From: Planctomycetota bacterium
GTDB lineage: Bacteria > Planctomycetota > MHYJ01 > JACPRB01
Direction of reading: 5' to 3'
Length of the DNA: 64,000 bases
Assembly: GCA_016190175.1 (NCBI GenBank)
Contig: JACPRC010000068.1
Coordinates: 9,844-73,843, forward strand
Below are positions 2,910 to 15,357 of the stretch, in pieces; position 1 is the first letter of the stretch, and the number at the start of each line of letters is the position of its first letter. A model generated the notes under the pieces. The model was not told where the DNA came from and did no database searches. It was given only the letters and a program-made list of their open reading frames with translations. Both the position numbers and the translations under genes were made by a program.

Positions 2910-3473
2910 TCAAATCAGCGCCCCGAACTCCCCCGGCGTGTTGACGTTCACGAACGGCGACCGGCCGTCCACGAGCCAGTCGCGCGGGTCGATCGGCACC
3001 CGTTCCGTCCGCACGAGGTCCTGGAAGTCCGTCGTGCGCAGTCGCATCTCGCGCAGGCGCCGCTCGATCGGCACGAGGCACGCCTTCGAGTAGACGGCGT
3101 GCAGCGGCTCCTCACCGTCGGGCGTCACCGGCAGCACGAAGTCCGCGTCGATGCCGAGCAGGTGCTCTACGAGCGGCAGGCTCACGAACGGCATGTCGCA
3201 TCCGCAGACGAAGACGCGGTCCGTCGGCGCCGCGTGAAGGAGCGCATGGACGCCCGCGACCGGGCACCGCGCGGGCAGGACGTCGCGCACGATCGGGCCG
3301 AATGCGGCAAGCCGGTCGTCGTTCGCGGAGATGAGCGCCGGCCGGCCGAGACGGTCGAGGACGTGGCGGATCAGCGGTCGCCCGGCCAGCTCCATCAGCG
3401 CCTTGTCGCGTCCCATGCGCGCGGAGAATCCGCCCGCAAGAATGCCCGCCGTCCATTCCGTTGCGCCGCCCAT
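2910..3473 (-). CDS. mobA: molybdenum cofactor guanylyltransferase
   Basis: N-terminal GILAGGFSARMGRDKAL and the overall 187-aa length are typical of MobA. The first codons lie inside the left direct repeat. Confidence 0.85.
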   Translation of the reverse strand: MGGATEWTAGILAGGFSARMGRDKALMELAGRPLIRHVLDRLGRPALISANDDRLAAFGPIVRDVLPARCPVAGVHALLHAAPTDRVFVCGCDMPFVSLPLVEHLLGIDADFVLPVTPDGEEPLHAVYSKACLVPIERRLREMRLRTTDFQDLVRTERVPIDPRDWLVDGRSPFVNVNTPGEFGALI

Positions 3474-3521
3474 CCACGACGGTTATAGTGGCGCCCCGTG
3501 GCCAAGGGAAAGGTTTTCCTC
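3451..3521. repeat. left copy of a 71-bp imperfect direct repeat (island boundary)
   Basis: gtccattccgttgcgccgcccatccacgacggttatagtggcgccccgtggccaagggaaaggttttcctc matches 13020-13090 at 65 of 71 positions in the same orientation. Confidence 0.9.
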
Positions 3522-4614
3522 AACCAATCACGAAGTGACAGTCGATCTCGACCTTGCACCCGCCGGCGCCCGGCTGAAACGACCGGGTCTGGCGGCGCCG
3601 AAGTTCGGTCACTTCGTGGTGAGCCAGGCGCGTTCGACGGCTGGAGGCGAGCGCGGCGCCTACGAGTTTCTCGAGGAGCCGCTCGGGCGGCTCGCGGACC
3701 GCGCCGAGTCGAATGACGACGTGAGCACGATCGGCCAGAACCCGCCCGATGCTTCGCCACATGTCGGCGATGAGCCGCCAGTAGCCGTCGCTCCGCTCGT
3801 GACGGTCATCCTTGGATACGCGGCGATATGTCGGGTGCGGAGGCCCGCCGAGGAACCACAGCCGGAGCCACTGGTCCTCCTCGAAGTTGGTGACGTTCAG
3901 GTAGGGCGGTGACGTGATCACGCAACGTACAGGCCCGGGGATCTGCCTCGCCAATCTGGGCAGCTTCCTCATGTCGGCGAGCAGCGCAAAGCCGCGGGTG
4001 CGCGGCGGTGGAGTCTCGTAGCGGTAGCGAGCCCGATCGCGGAGAAGGTCGAAGACGTCGCGCCGCGGGGGCCGATAGCCGCGCTCCTTCCAGAAGCGCA
4101 CCGAGTAGGCGGGTTTCGTGCTGATCGTGTGCGGCATCTGGTTGCTGAGGTAGCACGGAGATTTGTTGGTTTCTCCGTGCAGCGCCCCGAGCGCGAGCGC
4201 CGCGATCATCGAGTCGACGTTCGAGTCGTACCACCTGAGACGTTCGCGCAGGTGCAGCACTTGGCGCAACGTTTCCGGGCGGTAGGTCCATCGGAAGAAG
4301 GTCGGCAATTCTCGACGGGAGCGCTCGTAGCGGCGCGCGCGATACTCGCGCTCCAGAAAGTCAAGCCGTCGCTCCACCAAACCGAGGGCGGGCGCGTTCG
4401 TTTTCGCTCGCGTGACGCAGTACGCGACCGGGTTGACGTCGCAGCCAATGCCGCGCCTCCCCATCAGCAGCGCCTGGAACGGCAGGGTCCCGCGTCCGCA
4501 GAAAGGGTCCAGGACGACGTCTCCGGGCCGCGTGAGCCGATCGAGCCACGTCTCCGCGAACGTCTCGGGAAACATCGCAAAGTACGGACACAGGGCGTGG
4601 AATCGATGTCTCAT
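3520..4614 (-). CDS. DNA methyltransferase (SPPY catalytic motif; N4-C or N6-A type)
   Basis: The AdoMet motif VVLDPFCGRGT lies near residue 35 and the catalytic motif ITSPPY at residues 233-238. The ATG at 4614 overlaps the upstream stop as ATGA. The longer ORF reaching 4944 is Arg-rich and was rejected. Confidence 0.85.
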   Translation of the reverse strand: MRHRFHALCPYFAMFPETFAETWLDRLTRPGDVVLDPFCGRGTLPFQALLMGRRGIGCDVNPVAYCVTRAKTNAPALGLVERRLDFLEREYRARRYERSRRELPTFFRWTYRPETLRQVLHLRERLRWYDSNVDSMIAALALGALHGETNKSPCYLSNQMPHTISTKPAYSVRFWKERGYRPPRRDVFDLLRDRARYRYETPPPRTRGFALLADMRKLPRLARQIPGPVRCVITSPPYLNVTNFEEDQWLRLWFLGGPPHPTYRRVSKDDRHERSDGYWRLIADMWRSIGRVLADRAHVVIRLGAVREPPERLLEKLVGAALASSRRTRLAHHEVTELRRRQTRSFQPGAGGCKVEIDCHFVIG

Positions 4615-5579
4615 GCCCTCGCCACCTGGGCGAGAACGGACTTCGTCCACTTCGCGCTCTGGCTTCGAACCACGGCGTCCAAGCTCCGAGCGTGGAACGC
4701 GATGCGACACCGGTCGAACAAAACGCCGCCGTCGATGGCCGTGTCCGACCACTCCATTTCGCCTATCCTCCAAGGAACGAAGAAGAGCCGCACCGGATCG
4801 ACCGTGATCCCGTCCCGAAGCCACTTCTTGCAGAACGCACCGGGGTCGAGTTCGTTGAGCTTGCTCTGCCAACTCGACCGGCCGGCGGCGCACTGGCCGA
4901 AGCCGACGACCTTCCCGGGGCGACGATCGGCGAAGTCCATCCATGCGACGACGTCGAGCTTTCCGTCCCTCTGCTTGCTCGCTGTGGGGCGGGGTTTGCT
5001 TCCGCCGCCTTCACCGAGGAGGGCACAGAGGCTGTCGACCGCCCTCTGGAAGTTCGAAGGAAGTCCGCGTCGTGGGTGCCCGAACGACACGGCGCGCCCC
5101 GGTTTCCCAGCCCCTCCGAAGTACGACTCGGCGGCGGTTGCGCAGACTTCCTCGAACAGCTTCTCGACACCGACGCCGCGCGGACCTGCCTTCACACCTT
5201 GAACGGAGAGCAGGAGCAAGAAGAGGTAGGCGGACTCATGCGGCGCCTCCCGGAATCTCCCTCGAAGCTCGATGTAGTTGGCAGCAACGTCGAACGGATA
5301 TTCACCGGTGTCGCCGCCACATGCCTTCCATCGGTCCTCGATTTCGGCGAAGGCGCTCTCTGCACGCGACTGGCTGAGATCGGAGCCCTCGTCCTGGCGA
5401 TTGTGTCGCCGCTCGTGGTCCGTGCACGCGTCGATGCCGCCGCTGCGGCGGATGACCCGAACCGCATCTTCGATCGAGCTGTTTCGGTCCTTGCTCTTCA
5501 TCGCCAGGAGCTCGATCCAGTCCGCCCAAGCCTCTACCGGGTCCGTCACCGCAGGAACGGCGCTCCTCTTGCCGGTCAT
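4611..5579 (-). CDS. hypothetical protein, possible Mrr/PD-(D/E)xK-like nuclease partner of the methyltransferase
   Basis: 322 aa from MTGKRSAVPAV. ATGA overlaps at both ends indicate translational coupling. The C-terminal DGKLDVVAW...GKVVGFGQCAAG weakly resembles the Mrr-type D..D...QxK core, but the Lys is not conserved. Confidence 0.6.
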   Translation of the reverse strand: MTGKRSAVPAVTDPVEAWADWIELLAMKSKDRNSSIEDAVRVIRRSGGIDACTDHERRHNRQDEGSDLSQSRAESAFAEIEDRWKACGGDTGEYPFDVAANYIELRGRFREAPHESAYLFLLLLSVQGVKAGPRGVGVEKLFEEVCATAAESYFGGAGKPGRAVSFGHPRRGLPSNFQRAVDSLCALLGEGGGSKPRPTASKQRDGKLDVVAWMDFADRRPGKVVGFGQCAAGRSSWQSKLNELDPGAFCKKWLRDGITVDPVRLFFVPWRIGEMEWSDTAIDGGVLFDRCRIAFHARSLDAVVRSQSAKWTKSVLAQVARA

Positions 5580-6691
5580 CTCGCGTTCCGCGTCTTGGGC
5601 TTCCCGACGGACCTCCGTTCCGACATCTCGCCGTAGACATCCTCGGCAAGTTCCTTGATCTCCTTGGCTGCCTTCATCAGATCGGTTGCGCCGCTGTAGC
5701 CGGTCAGGACCGTGCCTCTTGCCTTCTGAAGCGCCTGCTTGGCGCCGATGATCGCCTCGCGGAACACGCGCTCGTCGCCGCGTCCGATGTCGAGCGACAC
5801 GTCGAGGGGCAGGCCTTGGCGCAAGGCGACGGTTGCTCGCTTGACCTGAAGCACCTCGTCGAGCTTCTTCAAGTCGGGGTTCTGGCTCTGAACGACGGGC
5901 TCCCTGTCCTCGGACTTGCTTCCGAACAGCCACACGCAGAGGTCACCCAACTCGGCCAGGTGGCTCTGTGGCACGGGCTTGCGTTCGCCCAGGGCCCGGT
6001 CGGAGACCCCCAGGAACTTCTGGATACCGCGGTACGTGAGTCCCGTGTAGAGGTGCGAGAAAGAGAAGTGTTTCTTGGCCCGATCCTCGCGGTCGAACAC
6101 CCTCGCAGCCTCGGCTTGCTCGAGGACCATAAGGCCGGCGTACAGCCGGCGAACCGTCGCGTGCTTGTCGCCGATGTCCCGGGCAATCTCGTCGAGGGGA
6201 ACGCGAAACTTGTTGTGGACGAAGGCGATGTAGTGGGCCTTGCTGTACGAGTCCCAGTTCTGCGGGCCGTTCACGTGTTTGAACCCGATGAACTGCCAGA
6301 TTCGTTTGCGCGTGCACTTGATGCACGGCAGCTTGGCCAGCTTGTCTCGGTCGGCGCGGCTGATCTCAGGCAGGTCGGTCGCACCGACCTTGCGCCTCAG
6401 ACTCGGATCGCGAAGAAGCCGAACCGCCGCGACTCGACGGTTGCCCTCGATGACGACGATTTTCCCCGACTCCTCGGCCACGTAGAGGGGTTCGTGCCGG
6501 AAGAACCCGTTGGCTGCGATGGACAGGGCGATCTCGTCCACCGCCATCTCGCGCCAGAGGCACAGCAGGATGTCGTCCTGCGAAGCCGTCTCGCTGAAGT
6601 CCGCCTCCACGAGGCGCGGGTTCTTCGCGTCCAGCACCAGGGTATCGACGTCGATGTCCTGGGGCGTCAGATCATCGAGCGTGCGCTTCAT
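5576..6691 (-). CDS. ParB N-terminal (ParB/Srx) domain protein
   Basis: 371 aa from MKRTLDDL. LDAKNPRL ... IVVIEGNRRVAAVRLL matches the ParB-like nuclease/NTPase core. It is the first gene of the three-gene coupled operon. Confidence 0.75.
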   Translation of the reverse strand: MKRTLDDLTPQDIDVDTLVLDAKNPRLVEADFSETASQDDILLCLWREMAVDEIALSIAANGFFRHEPLYVAEESGKIVVIEGNRRVAAVRLLRDPSLRRKVGATDLPEISRADRDKLAKLPCIKCTRKRIWQFIGFKHVNGPQNWDSYSKAHYIAFVHNKFRVPLDEIARDIGDKHATVRRLYAGLMVLEQAEAARVFDREDRAKKHFSFSHLYTGLTYRGIQKFLGVSDRALGERKPVPQSHLAELGDLCVWLFGSKSEDREPVVQSQNPDLKKLDEVLQVKRATVALRQGLPLDVSLDIGRGDERVFREAIIGAKQALQKARGTVLTGYSGATDLMKAAKEIKELAEDVYGEMSERRSVGKPKTRNAR

Positions 6692-6806
6692 CTTGGTCCA
6701 AGAGATAGCATCGACCCGTTCAGAGGGCCCCAGGTAGCGACCCGCCGCGGCGCGGGTGGATCGCCCGGGCCCGCGCCGCTCGCCGCGCATCGACTTCGAT
6801 CGCGGC

Positions 6807-7475
6807 CTACGCGCCCTTCTCGCCCGGCGGCTGCGTCACGGCCGCGCGCGAACGCCTCCCCGGCGAGCGGAAGAAATCGTCCGCCTCGGACTTGCTCCCC
6901 AGCATCTCCACGAGCGTCCCGTAGACCCCCGTGTACGCGCGGATCCAGTCCAGCCGGCGCACCCGCTCCGCCGCGAACGCCTGGTCGTGCGCCGCCTCGG
7001 CGTCCGCGTGTGCCTTCGCCTGGCGGACGAACCCGTCCTTGGCGGAAACCACGCCCGGCACCAAGGCCGTCAGCTCTTTGCGCCCCGCCTCTTCCACCGC
7101 CTTCAAGAGCGACCCGACCCGCACGGGCTCGTCCTCCGTGGACGCCCGGATGATGGGGTTCAAGCCCGTCGGGAAGAGCGCCTTCATCAAGGGCGCCTCG
7201 TTCTTGTTGCCGCTGAGCCGCCGCGCCTCCAGCCAGAGGTCGCGCACGGCGGCGTCGAGCCGCGCGTCCGCGGCATCCCGAACCGCCAGCGCGCGCGTCG
7301 CCGACCTCGCCGCGGCGCGCTCCTCATCGTCCGCCTTGCGGAGCCCCTCCTGCGCCTTCTGGAGCCCCTCGCCGACTTTCCGCGCGCGATCGTCCGCCAG
7401 CAGGCGGGCGATGGCATACTCGCCGTAGAAGTCCGCCAGCGTCTCGCTCGCGGTCCCCTCGTCGGGAACGTACAT
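6807..7475 (-). CDS. hypothetical alpha-helical protein (222 aa)
   Basis: ATG at 7475 preceded by GAAAGGAGGACGCTG (strong RBS). The Ala/Arg/Glu-rich sequence is predicted helical. I recognise no motif. Confidence 0.6.
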   Translation of the reverse strand: MYVPDEGTASETLADFYGEYAIARLLADDRARKVGEGLQKAQEGLRKADDEERAAARSATRALAVRDAADARLDAAVRDLWLEARRLSGNKNEAPLMKALFPTGLNPIIRASTEDEPVRVGSLLKAVEEAGRKELTALVPGVVSAKDGFVRQAKAHADAEAAHDQAFAAERVRRLDWIRAYTGVYGTLVEMLGSKSEADDFFRSPGRRSRAAVTQPPGEKGA

Positions 7476-7838: not shown

Positions 7839-10800
7839 TCACGCGAGGATCGGCGCGTCGAGCGACAGGCGCACGAGGCTCGGGAGGAACGGCTCAAGTT
7901 CGCCGGGCTCGAAGCGGCACAGGCCGATGTTGAACCAGAAGGCGCCGGCGGACTCGCCGTTCAGTTTGTATTCCCCGGTGGGCTTCAGGACCGCCCAGCC
8001 GTCCGGCAGAGGGACGAGTGTCGCCAGCCGCTCGGCCGTGCGCGCATCGTGGATCTGGATGCCGTTCGCGTCTGCCGCCGCCAGGAGCGAGCCATCGCGG
8101 ACGAAGCCGATGCTGTTCACCGTGCCGGCGAATCCATCGATCCGCCGCAGTTCCTTCCCCGTCGAGAGATCCCACAACCGAACGGTGCTGTCCCCCGATC
8201 CGCTGGCCACCTGAAAGCCGTCCGGACTGAACGCGACGCTCGTCACCCAGTTCGTGTGTCCCTCGAGCCGCCGCAGTTCCCTCCCCGTCGAGAGATCCCA
8301 CAGGCGAACCGTACAGTCGTACGAACCGCTGGCCAACCGCGTGCCGTCGGGACTGAACGTGGCGCTCGTAACCCGGTGGGTGTGTCCCTCCAGCCACCGC
8401 AGTTCCTTCCCTGTGGAGAGATCCCACAACCGAACGGTTCTGCCTTCCGATCCGGTGGCAAACCGCAAGCCGTCCGGACTGAACGCGACGCCCAGGACCC
8501 CGCCGGTGTGTCCCTCGAGCCGCCGCAGTTCCTCGCCCGTCGAGAGATCCCACAACCAGACGGTCTCGTCCCACGATCCGCCGGCCAACCGCAAGCCGTC
8601 CGGACTGAACGCGACGCCCAGGACCCCGCCGGTGTGTCCTTCGAGCCGCCGCGCTTCCTTCCCCGTGGAGAGATCCCATAACCGAACCGTGCTGTCCGCC
8701 GATCCGCTGGCCAGCCGCGAGCCGTCCGGACTGAACGCGACACTCATGACCCAGTTCGTGTGTCCTTCGAGCCGCCGCGCTTCCTTCCCCGTGGAGAGAT
8801 CCCACAGCCGAATCGTCTTGTCCCACGATCCGCTGGCCAAACGCGCCCCGTTTGGGCTGGAAGCAACGTTCGTGATTCTCATCCGATGTCCTTCGAGCCG
8901 CCGCGCTTCCTTTCCCGTCGAGAGATCCCACAACCGGACGGTGTTGTCGTGCGATCCGCTGGCCAGCCGCGAGCCGTCCGGACTGAACGCGACGCTCGCA
9001 ACAAAGCCGGTGTGTCCCTCGAGCCGCCGCGGTTCCTTCCCCGTCGAGAGATCCCACACCCGAACGACGCCGTCCACCGATCCGCCGGCCAGCCGCGCCC
9101 CGTCCGAACTGAACGCGACGCTCATGACCCAGATAGTATGTCCCTCGAGCCGCCGCAGTTCCTTTCCCGTCGAGAGATCCCACAGCCGAATCGTCTTGTC
9201 CCACGATCCGCTCGCCACCCTGGAGCCGTCCGGACTGAACGCCACGCTCGTGACCAACCCGCCATGCCCCTCGGCCCGCCACACTTCTATCCCCGTCGAC
9301 AGATCCCACAACCGAACCGTGCGGTCGTCCGACCCGCTGGCCAGCCGCAAGCCGTCCGGACTGAACGCGACGCTCGTGACCGAGTTCGTGTGTCCCTCGA
9401 GCCGCCATACTTCCTTCCCCGTGGAGAGATCCCACAACCGAACGGTCTTGTCATCCGATCCGCTGGCCACCCGCAAGCCGTCCGGACTGAACGCCACGCT
9501 CGTAACCCCCTCGCCGTGTCCCTCGAGCCGTCGCGCTTCCTTCCCCGTCGAGAGATCCCACAGCCGAACGGTCTTGTCCGACGATCCGCTGGCCACCCGC
9601 AAGCCGTCCGGACTGAACGCCACGCTGATCACCTTGTCACGATGCCCCCGAAGGACGACGATGCAGGCGCCTGAGGATTGCTCCCACACGCGAACACTGC
9701 CGTCGTCGTGGCCGCCGGCGACGAACTCGCCGGAAGGACCTCCCATCGCAACGGCATTGCACGCCGATGCGAATCCTATGCACGTCCGTGTCGCATCGGG
9801 CTTGGGGAGAGCGGCGCCGAACGTGTCGCAGGTCGCGGGAAGCGTCCCCTCATACTGGGCGCCCACCAGCTTGGCGCGGTGGAAGATCGCCCGCGACACT
9901 TCCGCGCCTCGAAGATCGGCCCCCAGGAGCCGCGCGCACGAGAAGTCGGCCCCCGCGAGGTTCGCCCCGCTCAGAGTCGCCCTGGTGAGGTCGGCCTCTT
10001 GCAGCCGCGCGCCCGAAAGGTCGGCCCCCTCCAGCTTGGTTCCGACCAAGCGCGCGGCCGTCAGGTTCGCGCCGCTGAGGTCGGCGCCGGAAAGATCCTG
10101 GCCCGAAAAGTCGGCCCCGGAAAAGTCCTTCCCTTCGATCCGAACCCGCTTCGCCTTGGCGTTCGCCCGTGAGAGCAGGAGGAGCGCGTTCTTCTTCTCG
10201 ACGGGACCGGCCTTCTCCGAGGCCAGAGTCGTCTGACCCCAAGCCGTTGCCTTGTCGCGTCCAGCGAGATCGATCAGAAAGTCCGCCATCAACGGCGACA
10301 TCTCGCGGACACCGAAGATCCTGCGCGGGCCACTCGCCTCGCCCAGCTCGCGGGCGGCTCGATCGGCGACCAGCCATTCCATCACCGACTGGTGGATGAA
10401 GGAGAAACCTCCCTCTTCGTCCCTCACGAGCAGCGTGCCGCTCCCAACCTGGTGCGCCACCTCCGCCGGGCTGAGTCGAAGGCGACTCAATATCTCGGTC
10501 GCCCAAGCCACGTCTTCGGCGAGCTCGCGCGCGTTGACAGTCCGCTCCGGCCCTTCCCACAAGCGTAAGGCGATCTCGGTGACCGCCCGCCGTCGGTCCT
10601 CCAAGACGAGGGCGGACGGCGCACCCGGCGGTTGGACGCGCCCCACTTCCTGTCCTAGCCACTGATCGAGGAGGATCTTGTAAAGGCCCCCGGACGTCAC
10701 GTGTCCCGCGCGCTTCTTGGCGGCCCGCAGTCTCCGCTCGTCCAGCGCCGCGATGAAGGCGAGCATCCGAGGATTCTGGGAGAGCCCGGCAAGGTCCGGC

Positions 10801-12941
10801 ACATCCTTCAAGAGTCTCAGCCGCTCCGTCGCCTTTTTCTCGTCCCCCATCTGGTTCGACAGGAACCTCAGGATTCTCGCGTCGTCGAAGGGCTGCAGCT
10901 TCGCCACGCGCCGGCGGGCAAGCCCCTCCACGCGCCGGCTGAGGGCGCTGAGCACCTGGCGGTCCGACTCGAAGTGCTGGGTGCGGCTCGTGACCACGAC
11001 GCGCGCCTTTCCCGCCGCCGCCGCAAGGATGGTGTCGAAGTGCTCGGCGGCCCGATCGTAGGTGAGGCGCAAGGCGAGCTCATCGAACCCATCGAAGAGA
11101 AGCGCGATCCGTCCCTCTTCGAGCATGTAGCGGAACGCAGTGGGATTGAACTCCACGCCGGCTCGGGCGAAGTGCTGGGCCGCGAGCTCGTCGAGGCACC
11201 GTCCCTTCTCGAGCGCGCGCATTTCGATCAGTACGGGGAATATCCCGCCGCCCGAACTCCCAAGCGGGCGAGTCAGTTCCCTCAGCAGGAAGCTCTTGCC
11301 TGTCCCGAAATCGCCCAGGACGAGAACGAACCGGCCGAGCGGATCCTGAAGCCACTTGAAGATGGACTCCAGCGCATCTTCAGACGCACCCGTGTCCCCA
11401 TCCTCCCCCGGCTGGAACGTCATCCTCTGGGGCACGTACAGCTTGTGCGGGTACAGGCGATCATTGGCGAGCCGCTCGGTCTGCCGCGAGACGTAGGGAC
11501 GAAGATCGATCAGTCCCTGGAACTCGGTGAAGCTCACGAGCCAGACGCGCTCGTTCGCCGCTTTCCGCGCCAGATCCTCCGAAGCGGGGGCGCCGCCGTA
11601 CACGAATGCCGACTGCACTCCGGGATCCGCCCTGCGGTAGCGTTCGTGAACAGCCAGGAAGCCGTCCAAGGTCTTGTCGGTGACGTCTCCTTCGGTCCCG
11701 CTCACCGGATGGACGCAGGCCGGACCGGACTTGCCGGCAGAAACCCTGAGATAGTCGTGCCCGGAGACGGGATCGGACATCCGCTCGATCGCGGCGCCCG
11801 CATACCGGATGCGGCAGATCGCGGCGACGCGAGAGAGGAAGTCGTCCGCGAGCGGGCGGTGGTGCAGGCGTTCGAGCGCCTCTTCCGACGGTCGCGCCGA
11901 TTCGGAAGGCGAGACTGAGGGTAGCGCGAACGTGCCATGAACGGCCTCGAAGCCTACGTTTTCCTCGCGCCACCACGCGTCGCCATTCTTGGATGCGCGA
12001 TTGTCCCCGATCCACTTCTTGTCGCCGGGAGAGTATCCGCGGCACCATCGTTTGAGGCGGTCGGGCCATACTTGAACGATCTGATACTGGTTGGGCACCT
12101 CGGGAGGACGATCTTTCACCTCCACCGCGGCGCTGCCCGTTGCGAGGATCGGCACCTTCGGCGACAGCCAATCCAACTTGCCTTCGTGCCTATGACCGTG
12201 GAGAAACAGGTTGATCGTCTCGCCGAGATAGCGATTCAGGTCGGCTTCATCGCGGAGGTTCGCTTCGTCGTCAACCGGGTTCCGGCGGATGTTGTGGTGG
12301 AGCGCCCCTACGCGCAACCATCCCTGCTCCTTGTACGTGGTGAGTTTCTCCTGAAACCACCGGAGTTGCCCTTCGCCCAGAAGGCCATGGTGAACTTCGT
12401 GGCTCTCCGCCATGGTCGAGTTGAGTCCCGCGACCGCGAGCTTCAGATCCTTCAATTCATGGAGAGTCCACGGGGAATCCTCCGTGAAGGAAGCGGCCGG
12501 AGGGTGGTCCTTGTAGAAGCTGTCGAGCAGTTTCTTGCAAGCCCTCCACTTGGGAAAATACGGTTCGCGAGGTCTGGCGCCGTCGCCTTCACAGTCTGAG
12601 AAATAGGCGACGCAGTGTTTCCAATTGACGTCGTGGTTGCCGGGGACGAGCACGACGTGATCCGGTTGCAGCTTGAGGAATGCCGTGAGTTCACCCAGGA
12701 ATGTTTGTACGTCTTCGAATTCCGAGGGCATCGCCCACTCGGCCAGGTCGCCCGTGACGATAGCAAGATCCGGGGACAGCCCGTGCTGCCCTCGCAGCAA
12801 CGTGAGATCATCCTTGAGTCGTTGAATCAGCGTGTCGAAACGCCCGTCCGGGCAGTCCTTCTGCGGCACGCGAAACCGATGTTCCTTGCCGAACTGGATG
12901 TCCGAGAGGTGCAGCAATGTGATTGCGCGGGGTTCCGTCAC
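7839..12941 (-). CDS. STAND NTPase: metallophosphoesterase, P-loop NTPase (NACHT/AAA-like), pentapeptide repeats and 14 WD40 blades
   Basis: Calcineurin-like motifs LHLSDIQFG, IVTGDLAEW, VPGNHDV, LHGHRHEG. Walker A VLVLGDFGTGKS and Walker B ALLFDGFDEL. A pentapeptide run (FSGADFSGQDLSGADLSGANL...). Twelve copies of ...VRLWDLSTGKE... plus two degenerate blades. GTG at 12941 has an AGGAG RBS; the ORF is also open to ATG at 13025. Confidence 0.9.
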   Translation of the reverse strand: MTEPRAITLLHLSDIQFGKEHRFRVPQKDCPDGRFDTLIQRLKDDLTLLRGQHGLSPDLAIVTGDLAEWAMPSEFEDVQTFLGELTAFLKLQPDHVVLVPGNHDVNWKHCVAYFSDCEGDGARPREPYFPKWRACKKLLDSFYKDHPPAASFTEDSPWTLHELKDLKLAVAGLNSTMAESHEVHHGLLGEGQLRWFQEKLTTYKEQGWLRVGALHHNIRRNPVDDEANLRDEADLNRYLGETINLFLHGHRHEGKLDWLSPKVPILATGSAAVEVKDRPPEVPNQYQIVQVWPDRLKRWCRGYSPGDKKWIGDNRASKNGDAWWREENVGFEAVHGTFALPSVSPSESARPSEEALERLHHRPLADDFLSRVAAICRIRYAGAAIERMSDPVSGHDYLRVSAGKSGPACVHPVSGTEGDVTDKTLDGFLAVHERYRRADPGVQSAFVYGGAPASEDLARKAANERVWLVSFTEFQGLIDLRPYVSRQTERLANDRLYPHKLYVPQRMTFQPGEDGDTGASEDALESIFKWLQDPLGRFVLVLGDFGTGKSFLLRELTRPLGSSGGGIFPVLIEMRALEKGRCLDELAAQHFARAGVEFNPTAFRYMLEEGRIALLFDGFDELALRLTYDRAAEHFDTILAAAAGKARVVVTSRTQHFESDRQVLSALSRRVEGLARRRVAKLQPFDDARILRFLSNQMGDEKKATERLRLLKDVPDLAGLSQNPRMLAFIAALDERRLRAAKKRAGHVTSGGLYKILLDQWLGQEVGRVQPPGAPSALVLEDRRRAVTEIALRLWEGPERTVNARELAEDVAWATEILSRLRLSPAEVAHQVGSGTLLVRDEEGGFSFIHQSVMEWLVADRAARELGEASGPRRIFGVREMSPLMADFLIDLAGRDKATAWGQTTLASEKAGPVEKKNALLLLSRANAKAKRVRIEGKDFSGADFSGQDLSGADLSGANLTAARLVGTKLEGADLSGARLQEADLTRATLSGANLAGADFSCARLLGADLRGAEVSRAIFHRAKLVGAQYEGTLPATCDTFGAALPKPDATRTCIGFASACNAVAMGGPSGEFVAGGHDDGSVRVWEQSSGACIVVLRGHRDKVISVAFSPDGLRVASGSSDKTVRLWDLSTGKEARRLEGHGEGVTSVAFSPDGLRVASGSDDKTVRLWDLSTGKEVWRLEGHTNSVTSVAFSPDGLRLASGSDDRTVRLWDLSTGIEVWRAEGHGGLVTSVAFSPDGSRVASGSWDKTIRLWDLSTGKELRRLEGHTIWVMSVAFSSDGARLAGGSVDGVVRVWDLSTGKEPRRLEGHTGFVASVAFSPDGSRLASGSHDNTVRLWDLSTGKEARRLEGHRMRITNVASSPNGARLASGSWDKTIRLWDLSTGKEARRLEGHTNWVMSVAFSPDGSRLASGSADSTVRLWDLSTGKEARRLEGHTGGVLGVAFSPDGLRLAGGSWDETVWLWDLSTGEELRRLEGHTGGVLGVAFSPDGLRFATGSEGRTVRLWDLSTGKELRWLEGHTHRVTSATFSPDGTRLASGSYDCTVRLWDLSTGRELRRLEGHTNWVTSVAFSPDGFQVASGSGDSTVRLWDLSTGKELRRIDGFAGTVNSIGFVRDGSLLAAADANGIQIHDARTAERLATLVPLPDGWAVLKPTGEYKLNGESAGAFWFNIGLCRFEPGELEPFLPSLVRLSLDAPILA
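8020..9720. repeat. 126-bp tandem periodicity (WD40-encoding DNA repeats)
   Basis: Recurrent gagagatcccacaaccgaac...gtccggactgaacgc units. About 60-nt blocks at roughly 8460-8530 and 8586-8656 are almost identical. Confidence 0.85.
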
Positions 12942-13019
12942 CTGCCGATCTCCTACCGTCGAAGCGCGCGCATCATACAAGAGCGGGGTCTGACGGCGCA
13001 ACCATCCCAGCGGCCCGCG

Positions 13020-13090
13020 GTCCATTCCTTTGCGCCCGCCATCCCCGACGGTTATAGTGGCGCGCCGTGACCAAGGGAAAGGTTTTCCTC
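13020..13090. repeat. right copy of the 71-bp direct repeat (contains the cobA-hemD promoter and its first 8 codons)
   Basis: See 3451-3521: 65 of 71 positions identical. Confidence 0.9.
13030..13058 (+). promoter_or_regulatory. sigma70-like promoter of cobA-hemD, probably leaderless
   Basis: TTGCGC (13030-13035), 17-nt spacer, TATAGT (13053-13058). Only 8 nt separate the -10 element from the GTG at 13067. Confidence 0.5.
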
Positions 13091-14431
13091 GTCGGCGCCG
13101 GGCCGGGCGACCCGGACCTCATGACCGTCCGCGCGCGCGACCTTCTCCGCCGCGCCGACGTCGTCGTTCCGGACCGCCTCGCTCCGCTGGACTTGGAGCG
13201 TCTCGCTCCGGACGCCCGGATCGCGCAACCCGAGCGGCTCATCCGCGAGGCGCGGGCGGGCCGCCGCGTCGTCCGCCTGCGTGCCGGCGATCCGATGACG
13301 TTCGGCCACGTGGACGAGGAGATCGACGCGCTCCGTCGCGCCGGCATCGACTTCGAGATCGTCCCCGGCGTCACGGCCGCGCTCGCCGCGGCCGCGTGCG
13401 CCGGCATCCCGATGACCCGGCGCGACTGCGCCTCCCGTCTCACCTTCGTCATCGGGCGCGGGCCGATGGGGGAGGGCGGGGTGGACCTGGACGAACGCGG
13501 CACCGTCGTCTCCTACACGGGGGCCGCGACGCTCCGCGAGCTCGCCGCGAAGCTGCGATCCGGCGGATGGCCCGCCGGCACGCCCGCGGCCGTCGTCGAG
13601 GCCGCCGCCACGCCGCGCCACCGGGTCGTCGAGGGCACGCTCGCCGACATCGCGCGCCGGGCCCGGGACGTCCGCGCCCCGGCGGTCACGTTCGTCGGAA
13701 AGGCGGTCGGGCTTCGCGCCCCGTGGTTCGAGCGCCGGCCGCTCTTCGGCCGGCGGATCGTCGTGACCCGGCCGCGCGACCAGGCGGGCGACCTCGCCCA
13801 ACGACTCGCGGAGCTCGGCGCCGAGGTCCTGACCGTCCCGACCATCGAAATCCAACCCGTGCCGCACGCGAGGATCGACGACGCCGACCTCCTGCTCTTC
13901 ACCAGCCAGAACGGCGTGGAGTGCTATTTCCGCCGGCTGCGCGACCTGGGGCGCGATTCGCGCCGCCTCGCGAAGACGTTCGTCGCCGCCGTCGGGCCCG
14001 CCACCGCCGCCGCGCTGGAGCGGCACGGCGTCCTCGCCGACTTCGTCGCCTCCGAGTTCACGAGCGAGCGCCTCGCGCGCGAGATCGCACCGCTCGGGCG
14101 TGGCAAGACCGTGCTTCATGCGGGCGCCGACAGGACGAATCCCGAGGTGCGGCGGATCCTCGAGAAGCACGGCGCGAAGTTCCGGAAGGTCACGCTCTAC
14201 CGCATCGTCCCCGCGCAACGGCTCCGCTGTCCCGACGCGGACCTCGTCACCTTCGCCAGCGCGGAGACGGCGCGGCAGTTCGCGGCGCGGGCGGGGACGC
14301 GCATGCCCGCCGCCTGCATCGGTCCCGTTTCGGCGAAGGCCGCACGCGACGCCGGGTTCCGCGTCGCGGCCGTCGCGAAGGAATACACACTGGAGGGCCT
14401 CGTGGAGGCGATCGTGAAATGGGCGAGATGA
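13067..14431 (+). CDS. cobA: fused uroporphyrinogen-III C-methyltransferase / uroporphyrinogen-III synthase
   Basis: N-terminal KVFLVGAGPGDPDLMTVRA, VVRLRAGDP and GIPMTRRD match SUMT. The C-terminal half (RRIVVTRPRDQAGDLAQRLAELGAEVL...) resembles HemD. Confidence 0.85.
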   Translation: MTKGKVFLVGAGPGDPDLMTVRARDLLRRADVVVPDRLAPLDLERLAPDARIAQPERLIREARAGRRVVRLRAGDPMTFGHVDEEIDALRRAGIDFEIVPGVTAALAAAACAGIPMTRRDCASRLTFVIGRGPMGEGGVDLDERGTVVSYTGAATLRELAAKLRSGGWPAGTPAAVVEAAATPRHRVVEGTLADIARRARDVRAPAVTFVGKAVGLRAPWFERRPLFGRRIVVTRPRDQAGDLAQRLAELGAEVLTVPTIEIQPVPHARIDDADLLLFTSQNGVECYFRRLRDLGRDSRRLAKTFVAAVGPATAAALERHGVLADFVASEFTSERLAREIAPLGRGKTVLHAGADRTNPEVRRILEKHGAKFRKVTLYRIVPAQRLRCPDADLVTFASAETARQFAARAGTRMPAACIGPVSAKAARDAGFRVAAVAKEYTLEGLVEAIVKWAR

Positions 14432-15357
14432 ACCTGCGCCGGCTCCGCCGGACCCCGCTCCTGCGGTCTCTCGTGCGCGAGACGACCCTGAGTCCCGACG
14501 ATCTCGTGATGCCGTATTTCGTCCGCCACGGCAAGGGCGTGCGCGCCCCGATCCGGTCGATGCCGGGCCAGTTCCAGTTGTCGGTCGACGAACTCGTCAA
14601 GGACATCAGGACCCTCCGCGTGCCCGCCGTGATCCTCTTCGGCATCCCGAAGCGCAAGGACGCGCGGGGCTCCGAAGGCTATGCCAGGGACGGGATCGTC
14701 CAGCAGGCCGTGCGCGCGCTGAAGTCGGAGACGGACAAGCTCGTCATCACCGACGTCTGCATGTGCGAGTACACGGACCACGGCCACTGCGGGATCGTGC
14801 GCGGGGAGACGGTGGACAACGCGGCGACGCTGCCGTTCCTGGCGCGGATCGCCGAGTCCCACGTCGAGGCGGGGGCGGACATGGTCGGCCCGAGCGCGAT
14901 GATGGACCGCCAGGTCGCCGCGATCCGCGCGGCGCTGCCCGACACGCCGATCCTCGCCTACGCCGCGAAGTTCGCGTCCGCCTTCTACGGCCCGTTCCGC
15001 GACGCCGCGGAGTCCCCGCCGAAGTTCGGCGACCGCTCGACGTACCAGATGGACCCGGGCAATGCCGACGAGGCGATGCGGGAGATCGACCTTGATTTGC
15101 GCGAAGGTGCGGATATAATCATGGTGAAGCCGGCGCTGGCGTACCTGGATGTCGTGCGCCGCGCGAAGGAGAGGTTCGGCTGCCCGACGGCCGCTTACAA
15201 CGTGAGCGGCGAGTACGCGATGGTTCGGGCGGCGGGGGAGAGAGGGTGGATCGACGGGAAGAAGGCCGTTCTCGAGATTCTCACTTCCATCCGCCGTGCC
15301 GGTTCGGACTTCATCCTGACGTATTCCGCACGAGAGGTCGCTGAGTGGATCAGTTGA
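14428..15357 (+). CDS. hemB: porphobilinogen synthase (zinc type)
   Basis: MNLRRLRRTPLLRSLVRET, DVCMCEYTDHGHCG (Cys-rich Zn site) and MVKPAL. ATGA overlap with the cobA-hemD stop. Confidence 0.92.
   Translation: MNLRRLRRTPLLRSLVRETTLSPDDLVMPYFVRHGKGVRAPIRSMPGQFQLSVDELVKDIRTLRVPAVILFGIPKRKDARGSEGYARDGIVQQAVRALKSETDKLVITDVCMCEYTDHGHCGIVRGETVDNAATLPFLARIAESHVEAGADMVGPSAMMDRQVAAIRAALPDTPILAYAAKFASAFYGPFRDAAESPPKFGDRSTYQMDPGNADEAMREIDLDLREGADIIMVKPALAYLDVVRRAKERFGCPTAAYNVSGEYAMVRAAGERGWIDGKKAVLEILTSIRRAGSDFILTYSAREVAEWIS

Follow-up and report, generated by a model that had tools for sequence, protein, structure and literature searches.

Three adjacent genes in a Planctomycetota bacterium (contig JACPRC010000068.1) probably form a self-contained defence cassette of the restriction-modification (R-M) type, as judged from their sequences and modelled structures. 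The genes lie on the minus strand of the 64,000-nucleotide (nt) stretch analysed here, referred to as the window. g1 (5576..6691, 371 amino acids (aa), defined by its open reading frame (ORF) and translation) encodes a ParB-like protein, g2 (4611..5579, 322 aa) encodes a protein of an unannotated family with a predicted PD-(D/E)xK nuclease fold, and g3 (3520..4614, 364 aa) encodes a DNA amino-methyltransferase. An earlier reading of the window from its letters and translated ORFs (the sequence-only reading) described the three genes as chained by ATGA overlaps and as a non-canonical R-M-like module. Both overlaps are confirmed on the minus strand by direct reading: the g1 stop TGA and the g2 start ATG share 5576..5579 (gag ATGA ccg at 5579-5576), and the g2 stop and the g3 start share 4611..4614 (c ATGA gac at 4614-4611). 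The module itself is supported by conserved co-occurrence of the genes and by the nuclease fold of the middle protein.

An R-M system is the simplest reading because the g1-g2 pair is constant and co-evolving and always comes with one methyltransferase, and because this partner can be drawn from three unrelated families, whatever its orientation. A generic R-M definition requires a methyltransferase, and g3 has the S-adenosylmethionine (AdoMet) and catalytic motifs together with PF01555 and MTase_II matches. The same definition requires linkage, and a methyltransferase lies beside g1-g2 in 78 of 80 related loci.

Conservation of the gene pair and its phage relatives

A pattern scan with one genome per species gave 80 loci with a g2 relative. 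These span more than ten phyla (Actinomycetota, Chloroflexota, Acidobacteriota, Planctomycetota, Myxococcota/'Deltaproteobacteria', Verrucomicrobiota, Bacteroidota, Fibrobacterota, Armatimonadota and Hydrogenedentota among them) and also include Alpha- and Gammaproteobacteria and Binatia. In every one of the 74 loci with an intact g2 that does not lie at a contig edge, g1 directly precedes g2. The two genes overlap by 4 nt in 28 of about 70 loci, and in most others the spacing falls between -11 and +18 nt. The methyltransferase adjoining the pair is of the g3 type in 53 loci, where it follows the pair, and of the D12/Dam-class (DPPY) adenine type in 25. The two types are mutually exclusive, with none of the 80 loci having both and two having neither, one of these being decayed. 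The co-occurrence across genomes that the sequence-only reading had proposed as a check is thus strongly conserved, both for g1 with g2 (74/74) and for the methyltransferase (78/80).

The D12 gene has no fixed place: when downstream it may share the strand of the pair or be convergent with it, and in other loci it is upstream of g1. Since the methyltransferase family is exchangeable and its position and strand are variable, the enzyme appears to act through DNA and not as a fixed subunit. Neighbour-joining trees of g1 and g2 are congruent, and the methyltransferase type is polyphyletic and interleaved on both, suggesting repeated exchange of the methyltransferase. Pairwise distances for g1, g2 and g3 are correlated (r 0.81, 0.71 and 0.75). 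Divergence is lowest for g3, intermediate for g1 and highest for g2; in classical R-M systems it is the nuclease that evolves fastest.

What flanks the cassette varies between loci; among the neighbours are a GmrSD_N protein, a type I R-M system, a large serine recombinase, integrases, transposases and a RAMA-domain protein. A locus from a Bradyrhizobium metagenome-assembled genome (L018) has a 446-aa ORF with no Pfam match between g2 and the D12 methyltransferase (11058-12398, plus strand), which may be an extra component in that variant. Strain-level presence or absence of the cassette was sought in four groundwater metagenome runs; the contigs were fragmented, and the apparent joints, with sides of 20-30 nt, were disregarded.

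Homologues of g1 and g2 are also found in P2-like phages. Among the PHROGs, full-length families match g1 (phrog_3694, 3e-74) and g2 (phrog_3984, 1e-17), and neither family has an assigned function. The GenBank phage homologues all belong to the Peduoviridae: Escherichia phage Wphi (gp98 and gp96), Yersinia phages HQ103 and L-413C, the vB_EcoM-12474 phages and Pseudomonas phage vB_PaeM-D14A. Profile comparison pairs g1 with Wphi gp98 (probability 99.9, E 2.4e-35, 340 columns) and g2 with Wphi gp96 and HQ103 gp42 (probability 98, E ~1e-13, ~272 columns). The g1-g2 pairing persists in phages down to 28% identity, and the recognition helix of the gp98 helix-turn-helix (HTH) differs from that of the environmental clade. 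An IMG/VR scan found two loci only for the clade of the window.

A convergent C5-cytosine methyltransferase follows the g1/g2 homologues in each of the three phage records examined (Wphi, HQ103 and vB_PaeM-D14A). The Wphi and D14A records annotate this gene; that of HQ103 does not, and there a 314-aa ORF (NC_070908, our locus L086, 2335-3279, minus strand) has the FSGCGG, PCQGFS and ENV motifs; the public record has no gene in the 1-kb stretch that holds it. The phage cassettes sit in accessory (moron) regions, and the Wphi copy adjoins gene A at the right end of the phage, the position of old in P2. Of 5426 complete E. coli genomes, 104-140 (~2-3%) carry the Wphi triad, among them that of E. 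coli W, where NC_017635 4338703-4341873 encodes a ParB N-terminal domain protein, a hypothetical protein and a DNA cytosine methyltransferase. E. coli W is described as restriction-minus in its genome paper (PMC3032704).

Sequence motifs and predicted structures of the three proteins

g3 has AdoMet motif I (LDPFCGRGT) at residues 35-43 (4486..4512, minus strand) and catalytic motif IV (SPPY) at residues 235-238 (3901..3912, minus strand). The sequence-only reading placed motif I about 195 residues before SPPY in an alpha-like order; the measured distance is about 197, and the motif order is X-I-II-III ... IV. PF01555 matches the AdoMet part only (1.6e-14, residues 11-62), and a REBASE-derived Type II model (PADLOC MTase_II PDLC03325) matches residues 3-323 (6.4e-37). 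Because this Type II model matches end to end, the permuted architecture is not new in itself. g3 has more than 2700 homologues at about 60% identity, and SPPY is present in 120 of the 121 family members with motif IV. SPP(Y/F) is typical of N4-cytosine enzymes, so the g3 product is likely to carry out N4-cytosine methylation, with N6-adenine methylation also possible.

g2 was initially described as having no motif that could be named, and it indeed has no match in Pfam, NCBIfam, PADLOC or PDB sequences. PDB sequences were searched with phmmer and then with a profile, and Pfam scans of 25 family members and of the isolated g2 N-terminus gave no match. Alignment to E. coli Mrr with hhalign has a probability of 0.8%. 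An exact search of the contig index for the g2 of the window had no match. A word-indexed search returned 218 homologues, all labelled 'hypothetical', and an exhaustive profile search returned 2947 cluster representatives (50% identity), 2221 of them at E <= 1e-10. The best 150 representatives are all stand-alone proteins of about 300-350 aa.

The AlphaFold2 model of g2 (predicted local distance difference test (pLDDT) 87.8, predicted template-modelling score (pTM) 0.88) has a conserved N-terminal helical domain and a C-terminal PD-(D/E)xK fold of the Mrr/MspJI-like kind. The top Foldseek match in the PDB is the Type IV enzyme MspJI (probability 0.99, E 8e-3, template-modelling (TM) score 0.30, 221 columns), and the further fold matches VC1899, Card1, Can2, Cdn1, BsmI and BamHI are all PD-(D/E)xK nucleases. 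A viral structure library searched with the model returned Mrr-type restriction endonucleases. The scores are weak, yet every top match belongs to the PD-(D/E)xK fold class. A structure search for the middle protein had been suggested as a further check, and its outcome in both Foldseek and the viral library is a predicted nuclease fold and not a housekeeping fold.

The putative active site of g2 covers residues 205-240 (4860..4967, minus strand), with invariant D205/D209 at strand 2, Q229-C230-A231 in strand 3, where Mrr and MspJI have QxK, and K240. The sequence-only reading had pointed to a weak Mrr-like segment (DGKLDVVAW...GFGQCAAG) with the usual Lys missing, and an Ala does sit where Mrr/MspJI have the Lys. 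The invariant K240 lies nine residues after the D-x19-QCA motif in the next helix and is kept in phage homologues that are about 25% identical. Relocation of the catalytic lysine occurs in other PD-(D/E)xK families. g2 also has an invariant R290-C-R292 motif. D205, D209, Q229, K240, R290 and R292 all persist in phage homologues of 25% identity, and the D, LD, QC, W..K and DRxR elements are kept in Wphi gp96 and HQ103 gp42. Since the predicted active-site residues are invariant even in distant phage homologues, a dead fold is not expected.

g1 was assigned a ParB/Srx N-terminal domain by the sequence-only reading. The segment IVVIEGNRRVAAVRLL is present, and ParB-type models and Foldseek matches to ParB, KorB and Noc agree with this assignment. 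PADLOC PD-Lambda-5_A models match residues ~10-170 (best 1.8e-17), TIGR00180 (ParB) matches weakly (2.7e-4), and a Pfam scan of the g1 of the window gave no match. PF02195 is found in some homologues, which go by the name 'ParB N-terminal domain-containing protein'. The AlphaFold2 model, built from 30 homologues (pLDDT 85.6), matches ParB/KorB/Noc structures over the N-domain and the HTH domain (Foldseek E 7.6e-6, probability 1.0, ~250 columns). On this model g1 is a ParB/KorB/Noc-like protein, with a predicted N-domain of the nucleoside triphosphate (NTP)-binding type, an HTH domain and an extra helical C-domain.

The g1 sequence GNRR (residues 83-86, 6434..6445, minus strand) is the equivalent of ParB box II, and profile alignment with H. 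pylori Spo0J pairs it with the GERR of ParB. The roles of the box II residues in ParB are known (PMC13229309): the phosphate-binding Arg is kept in g1, and the hydrolysis Glu is replaced by Asn. This Asn is invariant in 30 homologues, with either methyltransferase class, and EGNRR also occurs in Wphi gp98. At the position of ParB box III the g1 family has GFKHxNGPQxW instead. The HTH region PLDEIARDIGDKHATVRRLY (residues ~148-195, 6107..6250, minus strand) matches the ParB DNA-binding domain. Its helices in the model are H148-161, H166-173 and H179-195, and G174, D175, H177, T179, V180, R182 and Y184 are invariant.

The all-helical C-terminal region of g1 (residues ~205-361, 5609..6079, minus strand) has invariant HFSFSHL and SQNPDL motifs and is kept in Wphi gp98, over 340 columns. 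Residues 190-371, searched against Pfam as an isolated sub-domain, have no match, including none to a HEPN family. Conservation extends over the full length of g1 at about 60% identity, which is higher than for g2. PDC-M38A, an unpublished candidate-system model in PADLOC with 715 positions, matches g1 residues 49-191, and its positions 58-342 match Wphi gp98 residues 85-371. It may represent a longer, possibly fused, relative of g1, and text searches found no literature on it.

Proposed mechanism, rival explanations and known systems

In the proposed R-M system, methylation by g3 would mark host DNA and shield self, while g1 and g2 would jointly provide the restriction component, presumably as a complex. 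g1 would recognise unmethylated target DNA and load or activate g2 in an NTP-dependent manner, presumably by binding NTP itself. g2 would be a Mrr/MspJI-like PD-(D/E)xK nuclease with a relocated catalytic lysine that cuts the DNA. Methylation would block this attack, and the cassette may protect against phages or plasmids. ParB-fold domains serve as DNA sensors in GmrSD, SspE and Menshen (PMC12065111), and a ParB-like protein activates a DNA-modifying enzyme on double-stranded DNA (PMC13229309). PD-lambda-5, an active defence system with the g1 N-domain in its A protein, is a further precedent. Judged by sequence, g1 and g2 behave like a two-protein restriction part that is unprecedented in R-M systems, and full-text searches found no description of the triad, nor does a defence database describe it.

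A more specific proposal, which we put forward tentatively and consider less likely than not, is that the cassette represents a new R-M class built on a ParB-type nucleotide-gated DNA clamp. g1 would load at unmethylated sites through its HTH, close on NTP binding, and then slide or spread while carrying or activating the Mrr-like g2. A clamp switched by cytidine triphosphate (CTP) or another NTP would thereby couple self/non-self discrimination to cleavage, in contrast to the ATP-driven translocases of Types I and III and to direct cleavage at the site by Type II enzymes.

Several points weigh against an R-M system. The canonical Lys of (D/E/Q)xK is missing in g2 (QCA), the fold matches of g2 are weak (TM-score 0.30, E 8e-3), and profile searches link it to no nuclease at the sequence level. 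NTP turnover by g1 is uncertain, given that Asn takes the place of the Glu used for hydrolysis in ParB. The HTH of g1 does not vary between loci with one methyltransferase family and loci with the other, which is odd if the specificity of g1 must match that of the methyltransferase; either both enzymes protect the same site, as in DpnII, which pairs a D12 with an N6_N4 methyltransferase, or the specificity lies elsewhere. No target motif could be inferred from palindrome statistics, as observed/expected counts of 4- and 6-mer palindromes, taken over the window and 1.4 Mb of loci, show only the universal CTAG depletion. The 80 loci were gathered through g2, and the co-occurrence figures are therefore a view from the g2 side.

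The same HTH invariance would fit a conserved operator, as expected if g2 alone were an ordinary Type II-like endonuclease and g1 a dispensable accessory or a controller-type regulator that times expression of the nuclease and methyltransferase. This is unlikely, as k-mers 5' of g1 in 72 loci reveal no shared operator or parS (no 8-mer is common to more than 9 loci, similar to a control region), and g1 is a 371-aa protein conserved over its full length more strongly than g2, with the ParB nucleotide-binding motif retained. It also co-evolves with g2, a pairing held even at 28% identity in phages. Slightly less probable again is a reversal of roles, in which the ParB/Srx domain of g1 would be a DNA-nicking or NTP-consuming effector and g2 a dead Mrr-like protein serving as a sensor of DNA or of its methylation. 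DNA nicking by some members of the ParB/Srx superfamily, according to work cited in PMC12839542, would suit such an effector, as the Ala at the canonical Lys position would suit a dead g2. g1, however, resembles the CTP-switch ParBs and not nucleases, and the acidic residues, Gln, Lys and Arg near the predicted active-site strands of g2 are invariant even in distant phages.

Least probable of all, in our estimate, is a g1-g2 pair that works as a modification-dependent (Type IV-like) or abortive-infection module beside an unrelated methyltransferase, or a cassette with a non-defensive function such as epigenetic regulation, partition or phage anti-restriction. MspJI, the best structural match of g2, is itself modification-dependent, ParB-fold sensors of modified DNA are known, and phage ParB-methyltransferase fusions are thought to be anti-defence. 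Nevertheless, 78 of 80 loci have a methyltransferase, with another taking over where one has been lost, and it is from this near-constant presence and replacement that self-protection is taken to depend on methylation. Most copies are chromosomal and not viral, with two IMG/VR matches for the clade of the window, and the cassettes of the four loci inspected contain no ParA gene. The alternative offered by the sequence-only reading, an orphan methyltransferase with partition-like accessory proteins, is likewise not supported, given this lack of ParA, flanks of a defence or mobile character and the moron locations of the phage relatives.

The R-M proposal can be set against several known systems. 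PD-lambda-5 is an experimentally active E. coli prophage defence of broad range, termed 'compacted RM+Abi' (Vassallo et al. 2022, PMC9519451). PD-Lambda-5_A and g1 have homologous ParB-like N-domains, the match covering roughly the first 170 of the 450-500 residues of PD-Lambda-5_A, and PD-lambda-5 also includes a methyltransferase and is prophage-borne, but it consists of two genes and has a HEPN domain, whereas g1 has its own C-terminal domain. The cassette was not assigned to PD-lambda-5: g1 aligns through residues ~10-190 only, to positions ~5-190 of models with 430-590 positions, and Wphi gp98 does likewise. For PD-Lambda-5_B, g2 has no PADLOC match, and the model is not among the top 25 matches of g3.

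GmrSD, BrxU, SspE and Menshen NsnA resemble the cassette in coupling a ParB-superfamily NTP-binding domain and a DNA-binding module to a nuclease in defence. These proteins are of the DUF262 branch (DGQxR), are fused to HNH/DUF1524 or use other effectors, and mostly sense modified DNA with no cognate methyltransferase, whereas the cassette has a near-constant one and the partner of g1 is a separate PD-(D/E)xK protein. Membership of the GmrSD/DUF262 group was rejected on the lack of any PF03235 or PF07510 match, on the EGNRR motif and on the canonical ParB structural matches.

MspJI and Mrr are the top structural matches of g2, and its F..v..L..LG.GG ... DG.lDvv ... QC pattern resembles the Mrr catalytic domain. 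g2 differs in having Ala or Gly for the Lys of QxK, a conserved Lys nine residues later and another N-terminal domain. It was not placed in the Mrr/MspJI family, having no significant sequence relation to it and no Pfam match in 25 members; the likeness is at fold level only. Type IV Mrr/MspJI enzymes also act on modified DNA and have no cognate methyltransferase, unlike the g2 loci with one in 78 of 80, plus a ParB-like protein. Classical Type II systems share with the cassette a methyltransferase tightly linked to a PD-(D/E)xK-fold protein, a mobile and patchy distribution, a nuclease that diverges faster than the methyltransferase, and interchangeable methyltransferase classes. The difference is that the restriction part of the cassette appears to need a second, larger, highly conserved subunit of the ParB type, and literature searches turned up no Type II system described as having one.

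The CTP-dependent DNA clamps ParB, KorB and Noc have the N-domain and HTH fold in common with g1, which keeps the box II Arg residues, but g1 has another C-terminal domain, another sequence at box III, and a nuclease-fold protein and a methyltransferase as operon partners. A ParABS partition system was considered and rejected: the ParB-type N-domain and HTH are present, but a ParA gene is not. In four loci (L081, L083, L084 and P0053) no ParA-type (CbiA/AAA_31) gene was called among the neighbours, and the gene upstream of g1 in the window encodes a 222-aa protein with no family match. A search of the 250 nt upstream of g1 found no parS-like shared k-mer. The ParB-dependent phage thymine dioxygenases (5mYOX176/ParB176, PNAS 2026) give an experimental parallel, in which activation of an enzyme by its ParB-like partner is specific to double-stranded DNA and to the cognate pair (PMC13229309). 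ParB176 has no DNA-binding domain, and its partner modifies DNA and is not a nuclease.

Gene neighbourhood and wider significance

The 115-nt spacer 5' of g1 (6692..6806, minus strand) is likely to be the promoter region of the cassette. A perfect 10-bp hairpin at 6747-6779 lies within it, 3' of a 222-aa ORF (6807-7475, minus strand) that is directly upstream of g1 and has a strong Shine-Dalgarno sequence, AAAGGAGGA. This ORF has no match in Pfam, PHROG or PADLOC, and it was rejected as a fourth component because none of the 80 related loci has a homologue of it. The window originates from a groundwater metagenome. The G+C content of the cassette (0.64-0.66) is slightly below that of its flanks (0.67-0.70). 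Downstream of the cassette are housekeeping genes, including a MobA-like gene at 2910-3473 and an apparent polyprenyl synthase.

About 1 kb upstream of the cassette, 7839-13025 (minus strand) encodes a 1728-aa protein with at least 12 WD40 repeats (Pfam WD40 6.8e-163). By eye it also has a metallophosphoesterase-like N-terminus, a P-loop NTPase-like middle and pentapeptide repeats, and Pfam backs WD40 only. The protein resembles a STAND-type sensor and is absent beside the cassette in other genomes. The stretch at 13000-14500 has a G+C content of 0.74-0.75, compared to a window average of about 0.66.

The g2 family comprises thousands of sequence clusters in more than ten bacterial phyla and in P2-like phages, known only as 'hypothetical protein'. 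No model for it exists in Pfam, PADLOC or NCBIfam, and its constant partner goes just by 'ParB N-terminal domain-containing protein'. The industrial strain E. coli W, which has been described as restriction-minus, carries a homologous triad in its prophage Wphi, and this gives the cassette practical relevance and makes it easy to test. If the cassette is a true restriction system, it would be a common and currently invisible part of bacterial defence and of the barriers to gene transfer. It would also give a new job to the ParB CTPase fold, whose roles outside partition are an active question.

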